Source: a virus
Lineage: Duplodnaviria; Heunggongvirae; Uroviricota; Caudoviricetes
Virus record (IMG/VR): IMGVR_UViG_2695420487_000018
Strand: one strand, 5' to 3'
Length of the DNA: 15,479 nt
Numbering within the stretch: position 1 is the first letter of the stretch; each line of letters opens with the position of its first letter. Shown here one piece after another: positions 4,561 to 13,895 of the stretch. Below the pieces are notes generated by a model, which was not told the DNA's origin, ran no database searches, and worked only from the letters and a program-made list of their open reading frames with translations. A program made the translations under genes and the position numbers.

Positions 4561-5768
4561 TCCGGTTTTTCTCCCTCGCTGATTTTTACTTCCTGTTTCC
4601 ATGCCTGGCTGAACTCATCACCACCATCACGCGGGGACAGCCCTTCACGTTCGCGGGCTTCGTTCGGGCACATAACGCCGGATTTGATGCCGCGTTCATA
4701 GGTGGCAAAGCGTTCGCCAGGTGTGGCCCGTAACAGGTCCGCGCTGTCAAACTCCACCTGATACCGGATACCAGGTACAGGTGAGGCCACCAGCAGGGCG
4801 TTTTTTATCTGCTGCTCAAAGTTCGCCAGCCACGGGCGCATCGTCATGGTGAGAAATGCGCGGCTTGCCTCGCTGAAATTGCTGTAGGTGCTGTTGCTGT
4901 ATTCCTGCAAAAAAATCGGCGAGACGTTGAACATTCGGGCGATGTCTTCAATGGTGAAGCGACGGGAGGCCAGCCATTCAGCATCCTGATTACTCATGCC
5001 CAGCTGCTGATAGCTCATACCCCCTTCAAGGATGGGCGTTTTTCCGGCGTTTCTGGCCCCTTTGTAGCGTTCCAGTGCGGCTAATGCCTGTTTGCCCTTC
5101 ACGCCGTCCAGCCATTCGCCTGACGTGATAACCCCTGCCGCCATCATGCCATCACGCATCACGCTCGCGCCGTGGCGTTGTTGGGCCAGCCCAAGCCCCA
5201 GCGATTCGCGGCAGATGGTTACAGGTGAGCGCCCCATAAAACCGTCATCTGTGGAGTAACGAAGGTGGAGAACCTCCCACGGTAAATAGTTGCGGGTGTT
5301 TCCGGTGTAGGCGTCAGTGATGCAGTAGCGCCAGTTATGCTCACCTGTCTGCTCCACGTTCACCGACTGCGGCGGGTAAGGATGTAAAGCCACCGGAAAA
5401 CCATCACGCCCCCACCGAATCACCGCATAAGCATTACCGTTTAACAGGCAGTGGCGGATCATCATTCGCTTAAACTGGTAGGGGGTTTGCCACGCGTTCG
5501 GGCGCTCGTTGAGGATGTGATCGACCGGATGAGAATCAAGCCACTCGCGGGCCTCCTTCCCCTTCTCATTGCGTACCAGGTACAGGTAACACGGCATGGT
5601 AGCCACCGCCTCAGAGATGACCGTCACGACGTTCATGACGGCGGGCAGTGATTCCGCTGTCCCCGATGATACGTACTCACCCGCCCCCGTGTTCGATGTG
5701 CCGGCCAGCGCCATAAACTCATCAAGCGTCATGCTGCGCTGCTCTTTTTTTCTTCTGAAAGGCCACAT
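4557..5768 (-). CDS. Portal protein (HK97 family)
   Basis: 403-aa ORF directly after the prohead protease gene; size and sequence character of HK97-type portals. Confidence 0.85.
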   Translation of the reverse strand: MWPFRRKKEQRSMTLDEFMALAGTSNTGAGEYVSSGTAESLPAVMNVVTVISEAVATMPCYLYLVRNEKGKEAREWLDSHPVDHILNERPNAWQTPYQFKRMMIRHCLLNGNAYAVIRWGRDGFPVALHPYPPQSVNVEQTGEHNWRYCITDAYTGNTRNYLPWEVLHLRYSTDDGFMGRSPVTICRESLGLGLAQQRHGASVMRDGMMAAGVITSGEWLDGVKGKQALAALERYKGARNAGKTPILEGGMSYQQLGMSNQDAEWLASRRFTIEDIARMFNVSPIFLQEYSNSTYSNFSEASRAFLTMTMRPWLANFEQQIKNALLVASPVPGIRYQVEFDSADLLRATPGERFATYERGIKSGVMCPNEAREREGLSPRDGGDEFSQAWKQEVKISEGEKPE

Positions 5769-8111: not shown

Positions 8112-8522
8112 TCAGAACGGAATATCATCACCGTAAGGGTCATCGCCTTCCGCTGGTGGCTGATTACCCTGTGTGCCTGTGGTCTTGCGTCTGTTCCCGC
8201 CAGGACGTGCCGCACGGGCACTGATTACGCTGTCTGCAATAACCTGATACCCCCGCCGCGTTTCCCCGTTCTGTCCGGTCCACTGGCTTACCTGCATCGT
8301 GCCGGATACGCTGGCAACATCGCCTTTTTGATGTTTAGCCAGGAAATCGGCCTGTTTGCCAAATGCGATAACCGATAACCATAACGTCGCCTGTCCGTCA
8401 TGTGCCTGGCTGCATGGCAGCGATACCGCCATACGCGCCAGCGTCATCGGTGTTCCCTTGCTGGTCTGTTTTACCTGCGGGTCGTCCACCAGCCGCCCGT
8501 AAGCCGCTATCTGTGCTGTCAT
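8112..8522 (-). CDS. ssb: Single-stranded DNA-binding protein
   Basis: 136-aa ORF; OB-fold-like N-terminal region, Gly/Pro/Gln-rich linker, acidic C-terminal tail ending DDIPF (SSB signature); ATGA overlap with the upstream gene. Confidence 0.85.
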   Translation of the reverse strand: MTAQIAAYGRLVDDPQVKQTSKGTPMTLARMAVSLPCSQAHDGQATLWLSVIAFGKQADFLAKHQKGDVASVSGTMQVSQWTGQNGETRRGYQVIADSVISARAARPGGNRRKTTGTQGNQPPAEGDDPYGDDIPF

Positions 8523-8770
8523 GCTGTCTGCTCTCCGGTTTTAACGTTGATGGTTGTTACCTGTTCCGCTTCGGCAATCTCCCGTTCTGTCAACGTGGCA
8601 AAGTTTGCCGCTGCTGTGGTCATGAATGCGCTTATCAGGTCGGGATGTTCCTTCGCGTATCCTTCCCCTACATGTCGGTCTATCGTTCTGATTGCCACCT
8701 TTAAGGCCAGCTCTGTTATATCTAACGCTTTATATTTCGGCTCTGTTCTGTCTCTGCGTGTTCTGGTCAT
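8519..8770 (-). CDS. Hypothetical protein (about 83 aa) immediately downstream of the origin
   Basis: Track ORF 8519..8803; the ATG at 8770 has GAGGTGG upstream, and the earlier ATG lies in the AT-rich origin. Confidence 0.5.
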   Translation of the reverse strand: MTRTRRDRTEPKYKALDITELALKVAIRTIDRHVGEGYAKEHPDLISAFMTTAAANFATLTEREIAEAEQVTTINVKTGEQTA

Positions 8771-8803
8771 TTGCCACCTCAATTTATATATATATAGAAA
8801 CAT

Positions 8804-9120
8804 GTGCGGGTTATGCGGGTTATTGGGTTATCTTAGCGTGCTAACCATTTTTTATCCTTTTATATCAGCATGTTGCAAAACGCCCTGTTTATTATTTGCT
8901 CACCACATAACCCGCAAAACGCTCAAAATAACCCGCAAACGGGGTTTTTTCTGCGGGTTACGCATGACTGTCCGGTGTTACTTCAGTTATTCGCCTGCGG
9001 GTTATAATCGTGCTTTTGCGGGTTATAAATGCCCTTTTGCGGGTTACGTGCGGGTTATTGATTTCCTTTATATTCATGCGCTTAATACACTTATACACAG
9101 GATAACCCGCATAACCCGCA
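8804..9120. repeat. Iteron-type replication origin: about 12 copies of GCGGGTTA(T/C) (8 forward, 4 reverse) plus AT-rich tracts
   Basis: Forward copies at 8806, 8815, 8953, 8997, 9018, 9039, 9050 (and degenerate 8824); reverse ATAACCCGC at 8907, 8928, 9102, 9111; AT-rich 8780-8800 and 8840-8900; directly downstream of the rep gene. Confidence 0.8.
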
Positions 9121-9142
9121 ATTTTTTTCCTCACACAGGGGA

Positions 9143-11275
9143 TTAATCTTCATCATCAGGCTGGAACATCAGCACGTAAAAAACATGCTGCTTACCCCCA
9201 ATCTTGCCCAGCGCCTTTTTTTTGTATCGGCGATCGCTTCCCTTCTCCAGCATTCCGGCAGCATCCAGGGCACGCGCAAAATGCGCCGGATTAAATCCCT
9301 TCGCTATCTCACTCTCAAACACGTGCGGGAACGTGTAATAGCGCATCTCGTCATCTTCGTTGCGAATGCTCCCTTTTCTGTATCCGGCAAGCTCTTTAAT
9401 CGGTAAATCACGCTCATCTGTATTGGGGTACGGAAGGTAGCGGCTAAACCCAAACGACGACAAAAACGCCTCAGCCTGTTCAACCATCTGTTTAAATTCC
9501 CTGTTACCTGTGCCGAACTCCTTCACCCAGGCATTAAAGTTATGCTGTATCGCGTCGCGGCATTCCTGCACGACCCAGCCAGTTACATGACCGGAAAGCA
9601 CAAGCGCGGCCTCCAGTATGGCGAAACGTTCACCCACGCGGTGGACCTGCTCGCCGTAACTCTCCGGTATCAGGTTGCGCCACCGTTCGCGGCATTCCCT
9701 TACCGTGTCCTTTGCCTCCTGCTGGTGGCCTGCCAGCCATTTAACCCACTCACGACCCGCCGCCCCGTGATTTGCTGTCCAGGCATCCTTTAACGCGTCA
9801 GCATGTTCCTTACCGTTGCTGTATTCGTGAAATTTCGTGGCTTTTTCCATCGGAACGTTAAGCAGTCGGACAAGCTGCCCCGCCTTAACTTTTATCCCCT
9901 CACTTTTGAGGAATGTCTCAACGTCCATTTCTCCGGTGCTGATTGCCACCGTTCGCCAGTGTTTGATCTCCCTGTTGCCGCCATCCTTCGCCCCCTGCAA
10001 TTTCCCTGAACCGTTAAACAGCGTATAAGCAGACGTTGACACTTCCCGCGCATTTCCGGCCTGGCCTATCTCATCCAGTGGTAAAAGCCCGTCATTATGG
10101 GCCTCGGCCTCATTGGCAATACCTAACGCCGTGCCGTACCAGGTCAGCCGCTGCGCGTCCGGCTCTCCCCATAAACTTGATGCGATGTTCTGCGTGGTGG
10201 TCTTACCTGCCGATGACTGTTCGAAAAGATGCACCCCGAAGCCGTCAGCACCCACAAGGCCAATTAAAGGCGCTGCCAGTGACGTTGCCACACCCAGTAT
10301 CATTGAGGCATTACCGCCAGCCAGCCGCGCCACGCTGTCGCGCCAGCCATCCGCCGTGCCCGCCACGGAATAACCGTTAATCGCGGCGCTTTTTCCGGTA
10401 AACAGGATCGGTTTTTCAGATTCACCAATGATCGAACCGTCCGGCATGATGTACGCGCCAAAATGCCAGCCCGTTGTTGTGCTTAACTGCCATTCCTCAT
10501 GGCTTCCGCTTAACTGCATCCAGTCCGCCAGGATTGCCCTGTATTTGCCGTTGGTTGTCACGTTCAGCCCGTGATCTTTAAGTAACCGCCAGCCGTCACG
10601 GTCGCCGATACCACCACACGGGATCGCCATTGTGATGACTTTATGGTTTGCGGTTTTTTTCCAGCGCATCACGCGGTAATGCTCTTTACCGATCGTCCCC
10701 GTTCCCAGTAGTTCAAGCGGAGAACATAACCACGTCTCAGGCCGGATAATTTCGCCTGACTGCTTATCCACTTTGGGCGTTACCCAGAAAACACCATCGG
10801 CGCGACTTTCAACGCGTGGCTTTAATTCGTCATCGCTATGGCTTCCGGTATCTTTTTTCTTTACCGGAAACTCAATAACCAGACCATCAGAAAGATTCTG
10901 CCGCTCACGGGCCAGATATTCGCGCCAGTTCTCCACCTTCTGACCGTGCATTCCTTCGGGGTAAAAATTTGCGTCCTGAATATCTGCCGCCGCCAGCTTC
11001 TGACCAATCTTTTTGGTCTCCACCAAATCCAGTTCTCCGGCCTGGTACAGCCTTACGCGTTTTTTTCCATCCGGAACAATTTTCAGCGCATCAAGTTCGG
11101 CAAGCTGATTTGGCCCAAGCCACACAGGCGGAACATTATCGCCGGATGCGGGGCCATCCTGCTCCTGCCATTGTTTCGCGTGCGACCAGGCATCACTACC
11201 CGCGAAAATAATTACCTCTGTGTCTTTGTGTTTTATTCCGCGTGGCTGTTTTTTTACGTTCGGTGCCAGTTTCAT
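9143..11275 (-). CDS. Replication initiator, primase/helicase-type (P-loop NTPase; DUF927/D5-like family suspected)
   Basis: 710-aa ORF; Walker A-like FEQSSAGKTT; position immediately upstream of the iterons matches pri-rep genes of satellites. Confidence 0.8.
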   Translation of the reverse strand: MKLAPNVKKQPRGIKHKDTEVIIFAGSDAWSHAKQWQEQDGPASGDNVPPVWLGPNQLAELDALKIVPDGKKRVRLYQAGELDLVETKKIGQKLAAADIQDANFYPEGMHGQKVENWREYLARERQNLSDGLVIEFPVKKKDTGSHSDDELKPRVESRADGVFWVTPKVDKQSGEIIRPETWLCSPLELLGTGTIGKEHYRVMRWKKTANHKVITMAIPCGGIGDRDGWRLLKDHGLNVTTNGKYRAILADWMQLSGSHEEWQLSTTTGWHFGAYIMPDGSIIGESEKPILFTGKSAAINGYSVAGTADGWRDSVARLAGGNASMILGVATSLAAPLIGLVGADGFGVHLFEQSSAGKTTTQNIASSLWGEPDAQRLTWYGTALGIANEAEAHNDGLLPLDEIGQAGNAREVSTSAYTLFNGSGKLQGAKDGGNREIKHWRTVAISTGEMDVETFLKSEGIKVKAGQLVRLLNVPMEKATKFHEYSNGKEHADALKDAWTANHGAAGREWVKWLAGHQQEAKDTVRECRERWRNLIPESYGEQVHRVGERFAILEAALVLSGHVTGWVVQECRDAIQHNFNAWVKEFGTGNREFKQMVEQAEAFLSSFGFSRYLPYPNTDERDLPIKELAGYRKGSIRNEDDEMRYYTFPHVFESEIAKGFNPAHFARALDAAGMLEKGSDRRYKKKALGKIGGKQHVFYVLMFQPDDED

Positions 11276-12000: not shown

Positions 12001-12185
12001 TAATGCACCTCTTTTAATTCATACACTGCTGAAATAATGACTTGTGATAAGCCATATTCTGATGATTCGCTTCTCACCGCAGCAATAGCCGTCTGAACAT
12101 TAACAGCCTTCACATTCTGAGCGATACCAATTGTGTGGCCTAGTGGGTTAACAGCGCTGGCAAATACACGGAAGGTTTTAAGCAC
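12000..12185 (-). CDS. Hypothetical small protein (about 62 aa)
   Basis: Track ORF 12000..12215 begins at TTG; the GTG at 12185 has AGGGGG 7 nt upstream and overlaps the upstream stop. Confidence 0.4.
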   Translation of the reverse strand: MLKTFRVFASAVNPLGHTIGIAQNVKAVNVQTAIAAVRSESSEYGLSQVIISAVYELKEVH

Positions 12186-12642
12186 GGCACACCCCCTGAC
12201 GAATACGGGCGACAAAAATCAGATGTGCGTGCGGCAGCTGGGCGCGGGCTTCGCGTTCAGTGGCTGCGGTAACGGTGTAAATATCAATGCTGCTGTGGTG
12301 GCACTGCATAAAGCGCCAGACAAAGTAAGGGCGTGCGGATACAGCCATGTGAAAGGCTCCCAGATGAATTTTAAGGAGTCTCGCTACTACGCTGCTAAAC
12401 ATGGTGGCGAGACGTAACAGGGTTAGCAGACTGGTCATCTGGAAACCAGCGAGCACAAAGGCTCCCCCGTTACGCCCCGCCATAATGCGGGTATGGGTAG
12501 GTTTACGGACACAAAAAAACCGCTTATCGGATGTGGGCGGCTGTCCGCCAGATGTATTCAGGCTGCTAAACCCGGTCGCCATGTGGGCGACGGGGGAAGC
12601 ATACAGCCCCGTGATAATTTTTTGCAAGCGGTTTTTACGCAT
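12178..12642 (-). CDS. Hypothetical protein; C-terminal about 55 aa paralogous to the 12635..12907 product
   Basis: Track ORF 12178..12684; ATG at 12642. C-terminal motifs FVWRF, TEREAR, ARIRQG are shared with the upstream gene, with third-position differences (GTC/GTG, CGC/CGT). Confidence 0.45.
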   Translation of the reverse strand: MRKNRLQKIITGLYASPVAHMATGFSSLNTSGGQPPTSDKRFFCVRKPTHTRIMAGRNGGAFVLAGFQMTSLLTLLRLATMFSSVVARLLKIHLGAFHMAVSARPYFVWRFMQCHHSSIDIYTVTAATEREARAQLPHAHLIFVARIRQGVCRA

Positions 12643-12907
12643 GATGTGACCCCTGACGAATACGGGCGGCAAATACAGCAACACAACCTGACGGGCAACG
12701 GCTACGCGCTTCGCGTTCCGTCCAGGCGGTTACGTGGATGATTTGAGATTCTCCGGCACTCAGTGCCAGAAAACGCCACACAAAGGCCGTTTGTGTGTGT
12801 ACAAGGTGTGGTATATGATTTACAGCAACCATAACGGCTCCTAGTTTACGTTGTTGGTTAGAAGCCCTGCGAGTGGTAACGACACTTGCGGGGCTTTGTC
12901 TTTTCAT
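12635..12907 (-). CDS. Hypothetical small protein (65-90 aa), first gene of the leftward operon; paralog of the next gene's C-terminal domain
   Basis: ATG at 12907 (AAGG upstream) or 12832 (AGGAG 5 nt upstream); same conserved motifs as the downstream paralog. Confidence 0.5.
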   Translation of the reverse strand: MKRQSPASVVTTRRASNQQRKLGAVMVAVNHIPHLVHTQTAFVWRFLALSAGESQIIHVTAWTEREARSRCPSGCVAVFAARIRQGSHHA

Positions 12908-13437: not shown

Positions 13438-13532
13438 TTGCATTGCCCACCAGCCTGATAGCGGCTATCATCCCCGTGCTTATGTTTGGGATCACACACA
13501 CAAACGGCGCAGCGGGTTATCTGTTCAGAAAG

Positions 13533-13706: not shown

Positions 13707-13895
13707 TTAATGAACTGCCTTGCAGCTATCCTTCCAGGCCAGAACCTCGGATAAAGACCAGCCAACGGAACGACCGCCAAGTTTACGACGTGATGGGAAT
13801 TGTCCGGCCTTTTCCAGGCGGTAGCGACACGTACGGCTAAGGCCGGTTAGTTTTTCGCATTCTTTTTCACGTATAAACCGATCAGTGCTTAACAC
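13707..13895 (-). CDS. alpA: AlpA-family transcriptional regulator (excisionase-like HTH)
   Basis: 62-aa ORF ...KECEKLTGLSRTCRYRLEKAGQFPSRRKLGGRSVGWSLSEVLAWK... matches the AlpA pattern; GTG start with AGGGGGG 6 nt upstream; sits next to int. Confidence 0.8.
   Translation of the reverse strand: MLSTDRFIREKECEKLTGLSRTCRYRLEKAGQFPSRRKLGGRSVGWSLSEVLAWKDSCKAVH

Follow-up and report, generated by a model that had tools for sequence, protein, structure and literature searches.

The stretch of DNA analysed here, in the following called the window, comprises the 15,479 nucleotides of the IMG/VR virus record IMGVR_UViG_2695420487_000018 and is a capsid-forming phage-inducible chromosomal island (cf-PICI) of the EcCIEDL933 type from Escherichia coli O157:H7. 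On its minus strand it encodes a replication initiator of 710 aa, Rep, whose stop codon lies at 9143-9145, and the next minus-strand gene, which codes for a protein of 83 aa, starts with an ATG at 8770. Between the two lie 372 bp of non-coding DNA (8771-9142) with an array of short repeats (iterons) and AT-rich tracts. This region is the candidate replication origin (ori) that is described in the following.

A sequence-only reading had proposed an iteron-type origin at this place, with about 12 copies of a 9-bp iteron in both orientations and with AT-rich tracts, immediately downstream of the 710-aa gene, and the array was found as described. Eleven copies of GCGGGTTAT with at most one mismatch and a twelfth, degenerate copy lie within 8806-9119. 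The plus-strand copies start at 8806, 8815, 8953, 8997, 9018, 9039 and 9050, the minus-strand copies at 8907, 8928, 9102 and 9111. The twelfth copy, TTGGGTTAT, has two mismatches (8823-8831, plus strand), and an intact copy is present in relatives. As a T precedes all 12 copies, the unit is T-GCGGGTTAY. The start-to-start spacings are, in order, 9, 9, 83, 21, 25, 44, 21, 21, 11, 52 and 9, and the first iteron lies 23 nt past the rep stop codon. With at most one mismatch 18 matches to GCGGGTTAT were counted in the whole window, 11 of which fall into the array. The expectation for the 15.5 kb, obtained from 200 dinucleotide-preserving shuffles of the window, was 4.3 (SD 2.0), and 18 or more matches were reached in none of the shuffles. 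The AT-rich tracts are at 8771-8805 (74% AT), 8833-8906 (64%) and 9059-9101 (67%), compared with 49% in the window, and 30-mers from all three are among the least stable in the window.

A further exact GCGGGTTAT is located at 13512-13520, on the downstream side of alpA (13707-13895, minus strand) and immediately in front of a terminator-like hairpin. It was considered as a meaningful site and rejected, as it is a single copy and compatible with chance (about 0.1 expected in the window).

The array consists of the following elements, listed from the rep side:

9120-9142, no strand: Rep-proximal flank with a conserved CCTGTGTGAGG-like motif and an A7TT tract, 61% AT
9102-9119, minus strand: outer set of module R, two contiguous iterons, both exact GCGGGTTAT; the same pair is present 22-29 nt past the rep stop codon in every class representative
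9059-9101, no strand: R spacer of 43 bp, 67% AT, candidate unwinding site with low duplex stability at 9055-9098
8997-9058, plus strand: inner set of module R, four iterons (8997, 9018, 9039, 9050) at spacings of 21, 21 and 11 bp, in opposite orientation to the outer pair
8953-8961, plus strand: single central iteron GCGGGTTAC, adjoining the pseudo-dyad centre at about 8962-8996; a single equivalent copy is present in all classes
8907-8936, minus strand: inner set of module L, two iterons 21 bp apart, position and spacing conserved across classes
8833-8906, no strand: L spacer of 74 bp, 64% AT, second candidate unwinding site with low stability at 8837-8880
8806-8831, plus strand: outer set of module L, three contiguous iterons, the third (8823-8831) degenerate in the window; three are present in all classes and in L modules elsewhere
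8780-8805, no strand: class-independent motif, which reads GTTTTGTATATATA(TA)C on the minus strand and has a (TA)6 tract at 8785-8796; the next gene's ribosome-binding site follows it directly

Module R (8997-9119) and module L (8780-8936) are imperfect inverted copies of each other, with inverted-repeat arms I1-I3 that centre at about 8963-8977, and together they form a 12-site pseudo-palindrome of two half-origins. Opposed sets of iterons around an AT-rich tract thereby occur twice, once as two sites, 43 bp and four sites, and once as two sites, 74 bp and three sites. The least stable stretch within the ori is 8764-8815 (dG -30.3).

To compare the array between islands, a set of 80 IMG/VR loci encoding Rep relatives (69 of them distinct) was assembled by a scan with the Rep protein. 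In all 80 the rep stop codon is directly followed by an iteron array. By iteron sequence six classes can be distinguished: GCGGGTTA (39 loci), TGAACCAAC (28), TGGGACAAC (7), GTGGGTTA (4), and TGGGATAAG and TGAACCACG with one locus each. The layout was mapped in one representative per class (n=6), and all six show the same arrangement of 12 sites over about 310 bp, with the same orientations and the same spacings of 9, 11 and 21 bp. Seen from the rep side, two contiguous sites about 22-29 nt past the stop codon are followed by an AT-rich spacer of 43-66 bp, by four sites of opposite orientation at spacings of 11, 21 and 21 bp, and by one further site. The L part then has two sites that return to the first orientation at a spacing of 21 bp, an AT-rich spacer of 44-83 bp and three contiguous sites, and the GTTTTGTATATATA(TA)C motif stands last, just before the next gene. 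Between the classes all 12 sites change in concert and their positions stay fixed. The GTTTTGTATATATA(TA)C motif is conserved in all six classes and also in L modules that are detached from R, and the CCTGTGTGAGG-like motif with its A/T run after the rep stop codon is similar in the representatives of all six.

The iteron class goes with the last ~110 residues of Rep alone; neither the Rep cores and N-terminal domains nor the neighbouring genes follow it. In the TGGGACAAC loci L116-118, L139, L141 and L142 the Rep core is 91-99% identical to that of the window, whereas the C-terminal domain is 37-40% identical; L145, which belongs to the same class, has a more diverged core (80-91%). Among the GCGGGTTA loci the C-terminal domain is 86-100% identical, and loci whose N-terminal domain is only 40-45% identical but whose C-terminal domain is 86-90% identical retain GCGGGTTA. 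DUF4222, the 83-aa protein, SSB and the Rep N-terminal domain were each tested for tracking the iteron class, and none of them does. In addition, related C-terminal wings pair with related iterons, namely RRYKKKALGK with G(C/T)GGGTTA, GRGWQIRTPRLKH with TGGGA(C/T)AA and GRGYQQKSPR with TGAACCA. In 32 distinct R modules of the GCGGGTTA class conservation was 95.8% in iteron columns and 76.9% in spacer columns (Mann-Whitney p 1.5e-6). Natural swaps of the C-terminal domain, on a core that is 83-98% identical in the TGGGACAAC loci, switch all 12 sites together, and the iteron sequence is probably specific to the cognate Rep allele.

Candidate sites for host proteins lie in both spacers. The R spacer contains a perfect DnaA-box consensus, TTATACACA, at 9091-9099, and a box at this position (TTATACACA, TTATCCACA or TTATGCACA, with varying free position) is kept in 25 of the 32 distinct GCGGGTTA loci, whereas the 37 loci with other iterons all lack it. 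In the L spacer an IHF-like site, TATCAGCATGTTG, is found at 8863-8875, one mismatch away from WATCAANNNNTTR; a perfect IHF consensus occurs in 14 of the 69 distinct relatives, mostly at the L-spacer position, with 1.8 expected from shuffles. The DnaA box and the IHF-like site are suggestive of host accessory factors in the GCGGGTTA lineage, but only suggestive.

The protein which would read these sites is encoded directly beside them:

9143-11275, minus strand: rep, 710-aa initiator-helicase (Pfam DUF927, E 1.4e-48; HTH_56, E 6.7e-4; PHROG 1139, E 1e-185)
10826-11275, minus strand: N-terminal domain of Rep, residues 1-150
9962-10765, minus strand: DUF927 AAA+ core of Rep, residues 171-438, with a GKT Walker A motif (357-359) and LLPLDE (397-402)
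9146-9475, minus strand: putative C-terminal specificity domain of Rep, residues 601-710, which tracks the iteron class

Among solved structures the nearest to Rep are PDB 8tch_A, a 'Pathogenicity island protein' (E 2.4e-12), where the similarity covers the core only and sequence identity is low, and Cch (5dgk, E 2.5e-3). In NCBIfam Rep matches Cch1 of the staphylococcal cassette chromosome mec (SCCmec; E 3e-10), and a search of literature text for PDB entry 8TCH gave nothing relevant. The DUF927 proteins include Cch and the Rep of SaPIbov1, a Staphylococcus aureus pathogenicity island (SaPI), and both are self-loading replicative helicases (PMC9371898; PMC7581432). In this family the iterons surround an AT-rich region immediately 3' of the gene and are recognised by the C-terminal domain, probably in the form of two hexamers (PMC9371898; PMC7581432). 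By sequence family Rep is a helicase-initiator of the DUF927 type related to SaPI Rep and SCCmec Cch, for which hexamer formation and helicase activity are predicted from the family.

From the layout, the co-variation with the C-terminal domain of Rep and the constant place after rep in all 80 loci, 8771-9142 is very probably the vegetative replication origin of the EcCIEDL933-type cf-PICI and the cognate binding and loading site of the adjacent DUF927 Rep. The earlier proposal of an iteron-type origin served by the neighbouring rep is strongly supported by this comparison and also by the equivalent position of the array in the island EcCICFT073. Upon induction by a helper phage, Rep hexamers would recognise the iterons via the C-terminal winged-helix-like domain, melt the AT-rich spacers and load themselves as replicative helicase, by analogy with SaPI Rep and SCCmec Cch. 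Probably one hexamer would be loaded per half-origin, both facing outward, which would result in bidirectional replication, and the 21-bp spacing would place the inner sites on one face of the helix. The island SSB would then coat the opened strands and recruit host replisome proteins by its DDIPF tip, and priming and synthesis would be left to the host, perhaps also to the helper phage.

A functional precedent is the sister island EcCICFT073. With a rep-ori segment of this island a thermosensitive plasmid was able to replicate at the restrictive temperature, and replication was lost without rep and significantly reduced without ori (Fillol-Salom et al., 2018, PMC6092414). Both islands belong to the same family and have the same slot (DUF4222, rep, ori, a gene for 83-85 aa, ssb and perC), in which the array of the window occupies the position of the validated ori. 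The N-terminal ~140 residues of Rep are 75% identical between the two, SSB 97% and the small protein 82%, and EcCICFT073 likewise has iterons in both orientations around an AT-rich stretch. However, its core is a 584-aa 'DNA primase family protein' of the P4 family and not DUF927, its iterons read CTGTCTACC / GGTAGAYAG, the sites are laid out differently and a (TA)n motif is missing. The two origins are therefore analogous cassettes in one scaffold and not homologous origins.

As far as it is summarised in later work, the SaPI ori lies immediately 3' of rep and consists of 6-12 short opposed iterons and an AT-rich region (Ubeda et al., 2007, 2012, via PMC9371898 and PMC7581432). For SaPIs the autonomous, Rep-dependent replication of rep-ori and the binding and melting of ori by Rep have been demonstrated (PMC9371898). 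The window shares with SaPIbov1 and SaPI1, in so far as these accounts cover them, the ori directly after rep, the opposed iterons, the DUF927 Rep and the allele-specific recognition. In difference to SaPIs, the host is Gram-negative, the iterons have 9-10 bp instead of 5-6 bp, and there are two AT-rich spacers in a 12-site pseudo-palindrome of two modules instead of one. Furthermore, the N-terminal domain of Rep is not recognisable as a primase of the archaeo-eukaryotic type (AEP), a separate pri gene is absent, and the ssb gene follows the ori. By its sequence, the ori of the window is best described as a Gram-negative DUF927 version of the known Rep-iteron origin of SaPIs and PICIs.

In satellite phage P4 the alpha protein combines C-terminal origin recognition and helicase in one polypeptide, and octamer-type repeats are present at ori and at a second site, crr, which may be kilobases apart. 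The alpha protein, ori and crr were reportedly described by Flensburg and Calendar in 1987 and by Ziegelin and co-workers in 1993. With P4 the window has in common a single multifunctional protein, and the two cis sites of P4 resemble R and a distant L in split islands such as L006; moreover, Rep relatives of 894-952 aa carry a Zn-ribbon and Toprim primase N-terminus, as alpha does. Unlike in P4, the helicase is of the DUF927 type and not a P4-type superfamily 3 (SF3) helicase, the 710-aa form has no demonstrable primase, and R and L are contiguous.

Iteron plasmids (pSC101, R6K, RK2, P1, F) also have initiator sites beside an AT-rich unwinding element and possibly DnaA and IHF sites, and their incompatibility logic could explain orphan L modules. 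The ori of the window is nevertheless not an iteron-plasmid origin of the RepA/pi/TrfA type. The plasmid origins have direct repeats of 17-22 bp, winged-helix Rep monomers that are no helicases and a need for host DnaB/DnaC, whereas the sites in the window have 9-10 bp, occur in both orientations and have a predicted helicase as reader, and a match in PLSDB was not obtained. A functional analogy exists to SV40 large T and papillomavirus E1, where an initiator-helicase acts on short inverted repeats with easily melted flanks as two hexamers (PMC7581432); those proteins are unrelated to Rep, have their DNA-binding domain at the N-terminus and act in eukaryotic hosts.

Several observations weigh against 8771-9142 being, as a whole, the origin read by this Rep. 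The support for a winged helix is weak: HTH_56, the helix-turn-helix profile of Cch, scores 24.2 bits against a cut-off of 26.2 and matches 6 of 14 C-terminal domains (best E 3.6e-5). A profile of these 14 domains gave nothing meaningful against PDB sequences. The AlphaFold model of the Rep C-terminal domain has a pLDDT (predicted local distance difference test) of 45, with a helix-helix-hairpin pattern at residues 651-686, and a fold search with it was dropped as the model was too poor. That this domain reads the iterons has strong, if indirect, support from the iteron class, which follows it alone. Two bioRxiv preprints on cf-PICIs mention neither origin nor iterons, and the ori is known here from sequence alone. 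Since the DNA coding for the C-terminal domain adjoins the ori, co-inheritance could in part reflect one recombination block and not function. However, the exchanged block starts inside rep at the domain boundary and replaces all 12 sites, as a functional cassette predicts. The remaining observations concern module L. In about 110 genomes only module R stands beside rep, so that adjacency of L is not needed. At the distal ends of the islands L007, L183 and L184, whose initiators are unrelated, L occurs alone with intact GCGGGTTA sites, and a homologue of the Rep C-terminal domain was not found in the fetched stretches of these three. L may thus possess, or have gained, a function independent of this Rep.

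These observations on L can also be accommodated if the origin bound by Rep is the R half only (8997-9119) and L (8780-8936) is a separable cis element, adjacent by happenstance, which might serve as a second site like crr of satellite phage P4, as a half-origin used in trans or as an iteron decoy. We regard this as unlikely, but it deserves to be weighed. In complete E. coli genomes L was found in 300, R in 252 and either of them in 301; about 251 carry both, contiguous in only 141, and about 49 carry L alone. R alone follows rep in many islands, e.g., L003, L006 and L123, and in L006 some 11 kb separate R from L (16533-16676), which is placed at the distal end of the island. Further detached L modules at far island ends are located at 741-901 in L007, 14001-14154 in L183 and 14001-14155 in L184. 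They are composed of TATATATATA, 3-4 GCGGGTTA sites in a row, an AT-rich spacer that includes an IHF-like site, and three more GCGGGTTA sites. The initiators of L183 and L184 are of the CFT073 type, L184 being a cf-PICI, and that of L007 is of the RepA type with its own TCCTCACTTTT iterons. On the other hand, L is contiguous with R in representatives of all six classes and its sites have the same class-specific sequence, which argues that the same binder reads both halves, and each half is an imperfect inverted copy of the other. The simplest reading of the orphan L modules is that rep cassettes were exchanged between conserved flanks and the distal L was left behind.

Across L copies that share only 68-94% overall identity the iterons do not vary, which leaves room for a crr-like, a trans-acting or a decoy role. 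L might be a mobile cis element in its own right, through which islands with unrelated initiators are replicated by the Rep of a competing co-resident or incoming island or titrate this Rep, or which acts as a second cis site like P4 crr in split islands. To this we attach a low probability; use or titration of a foreign Rep, if true, would mean hitchhiking of satellites on satellites or iteron-based incompatibility. Two other explanations for the detached modules were rejected. A place beside a cos site does not hold, as EcCICFT073 has a lambda cosN whereas L006, L007 and the window have none, and integrase arm sites do not fit with L-bearing islands that occupy different chromosomal integration sites. 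In L007 the TCCTCACTTTT iterons (5286-5763) lie in both orientations around a very AT-rich stretch directly after the gene for the RepA-type initiator, and this array is another instance of an origin that follows its initiator gene.

The remaining rivals involve the genes on the other side of the array and an open reading frame (ORF) that runs through it:

8519-8770, minus strand: conserved 83-aa protein, first gene after the ori (PHROG 1231, E 2.5e-51), with a GAGGTG ribosome-binding site and the start annotated in NZ_CP038300
8112-8522, minus strand: ssb, intact SSB of 136 aa ending in a DDIPF tip (Pfam SSB, E 1.3e-16; TIGR00621, 55.1 bits against a cut-off of 53.95)
8400-9146, plus strand: spurious 248-aa ORF that crosses the iterons and lies antisense to ssb and the 83-aa gene

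That the repeats are not an origin but operators of a transcription factor for the downstream operon (the 83-aa gene, ssb, perC and the capsid genes) is improbable. The array does lie directly upstream of this operon, the conserved (TA)n motif stands about 15 nt before the ribosome-binding site, and the exact 9-mer at 13512 downstream of alpA could be a further operator, but a single extra copy in 15.5 kb has a chance probability of about 0.1. A promoter scan of 8500-9400 found no sigma-70-like promoter, and the two terminator-like hairpins in the same stretch are no more than shuffles give. R-only arrays precede a different first gene, ssb, and detached L modules lack a downstream gene. Moreover, no neighbouring regulator or small protein co-varies with the iteron class, which the Rep C-terminal domain alone does; the 83-aa protein is 82% identical in EcCICFT073 despite different iterons and is thus not the specificity determinant.

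Even less likely are the repeats to be a packaging recognition site (cos/pac, bound by the small terminase) of the capsid-forming island. A lambda-type cosB, with inverted R sites around an IHF bend (PMC9026076), is superficially similar, and the IHF-like site in the L spacer and the detached L modules near island ends would fit. However, the same arrays follow rep in L006 and L007, where the fetched stretches have no annotated terminase gene, lambda cosN is not found in the window, terS lies 6 kb away, and the specificity class follows the Rep C-terminal domain.

That the ORF at 8400-9146 is a genuine gene, with the repeats arising from a repetitive protein, can practically be dismissed. This 248-aa ORF is open in the window, and in one genome PGAP placed a similar antisense ORF over a detached L module, but NCBIfam and PHROGs contain no family that matches the ORF of the window, half of it overlaps two well-supported genes in antisense, and across the ori every antisense frame contains stops in 64 of the 69 distinct related loci, the five with an open frame all being close relatives. 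The ORF had already been judged spurious from the letters alone, and rightly so.

The label 'primase/helicase-type', under which the 710-aa gene had been introduced, stands for the helicase-initiator part (DUF927) and is not borne out for the primase part. Neither Pfam nor NCBIfam shows a primase domain in the 710-aa Rep, and the PHROG 1139 profile 'DNA primase' aligns to Rep solely from profile position 170 onward. The longer relatives (894-952 aa) carry the Zn-ribbon and Toprim N-terminus clearly, but in hhalign the short N-terminal domain of Rep shows no similarity to it. Rep has an invariant FAG motif where the Toprim of the long form has SEG, a correspondence made by eye and unsupported by alignment tools. 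The same N-terminal domain occurs joined to three initiator cores of unrelated families (DUF927, the P4-family core and a RepA-type helicase), so its role is probably general rather than catalytic priming.

As claimed before, the island carries its own SSB, which is intact in the window. In strain SS TX 754-1 (L001, 9413-9823) W80 of ssb is changed to a stop and PGAP marks a pseudogene, so the island SSB may be dispensable. The replication module had also been called largely self-sufficient. This is correct as to the initiator-helicase, the ori and the SSB; as a polymerase is not encoded and a primase not demonstrable, the island would be self-sufficient for initiation only.

The gene order of the island is int, alpA, icd-like, DUF4222, rep, ssb, perC, capsid, protease, portal, HNH, terS and terL, all on the minus strand, with the 83-aa gene between rep and ssb; connectors are also encoded and the capsid is of the HK97 type. 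Its size lies within the ~10-18 kb of cf-PICIs, and it has int, alpA and the replication and capsid/packaging modules, with no tail or lysis genes according to Pfam and the RefSeq annotation. With EDL933 the ori region shares 97.8% identity, and near-identical copies of the island sit in tqsA of E. coli O157:H7 strains. EcCIEDL933 is the published cf-PICI prototype, which replicates after helper induction (10.1101/2022.09.08.507074), and the window has the length of the 15.5-kb EDL933 element that was listed as a PICI candidate in 2018 (PMC6092414 supplement). The ori region was found in 301 of 5426 E. coli genomes. PLSDB plasmids gave no match and the phage collection one short match of 67 bp only, so the region appears to be specific to chromosomal islands. 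The 17-mer GCGGGTTATGCGGGTTA was also searched across genome contigs and discarded: its 93 matches in unrelated phyla are about what chance gives in 596 Gb, and an ori-like cluster was not among them.

Some further observations were made elsewhere in the island. Modules of the c4/icd type are known from P1, P7 and P4, and the island has one as well. A C4 antisense RNA (Rfam RF01695, 72.7 bits, gathering threshold 45) is located at 12400-12487 on the minus strand and adjoins the Icd-like genes. In the same area there is a diverged tandem duplication (12176-12274 and 12633-12734, period about 457-460 bp) with two ORFs of similar C-termini (...ARIRQG...); it lies where a near-identical island has an annotated Icd-like gene. 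Coverage of the window by the best-matching genomes is only 97%. At its distal end the island has about 700 bp (184-900) for which a near-identical island shows no annotated gene; the first ~170 bp of this segment are common to the ends of other PICIs (L184, EcCICFT073), and the remainder differs from L184, which has a detached L module there.

The principle of iterons downstream of rep in PICIs is already established, and a specialist will not be surprised by it. What may be new are the sites of 9-10 bp, the 12-site pseudo-palindrome with two spacers, and the six classes that are swapped as cassettes of C-terminal domain and ori. A search of literature text for the iteron sequence gave no relevant match, although Fig. 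2a of PMC6092414 draws the iterons of several E. coli PICIs and could include this one. The analysis would place the origin of the prototype cf-PICI lineage, which is unmapped in two bioRxiv cf-PICI preprints, and gives exact coordinates for deletion or cloning. Two likely annotation errors are corrected, the antisense 248-aa ORF and the 'primase' label of the 710-aa protein. The lead most worth following is the orphan half-origins. For the family as a whole, six iteron sequences on a fixed 12-site scaffold, each tied to a Rep cassette of ~110 residues, would amount to a recognition code for helicases of the SaPI/Cch type and may aid the design of orthogonal rep-ori pairs for engineered PICIs.

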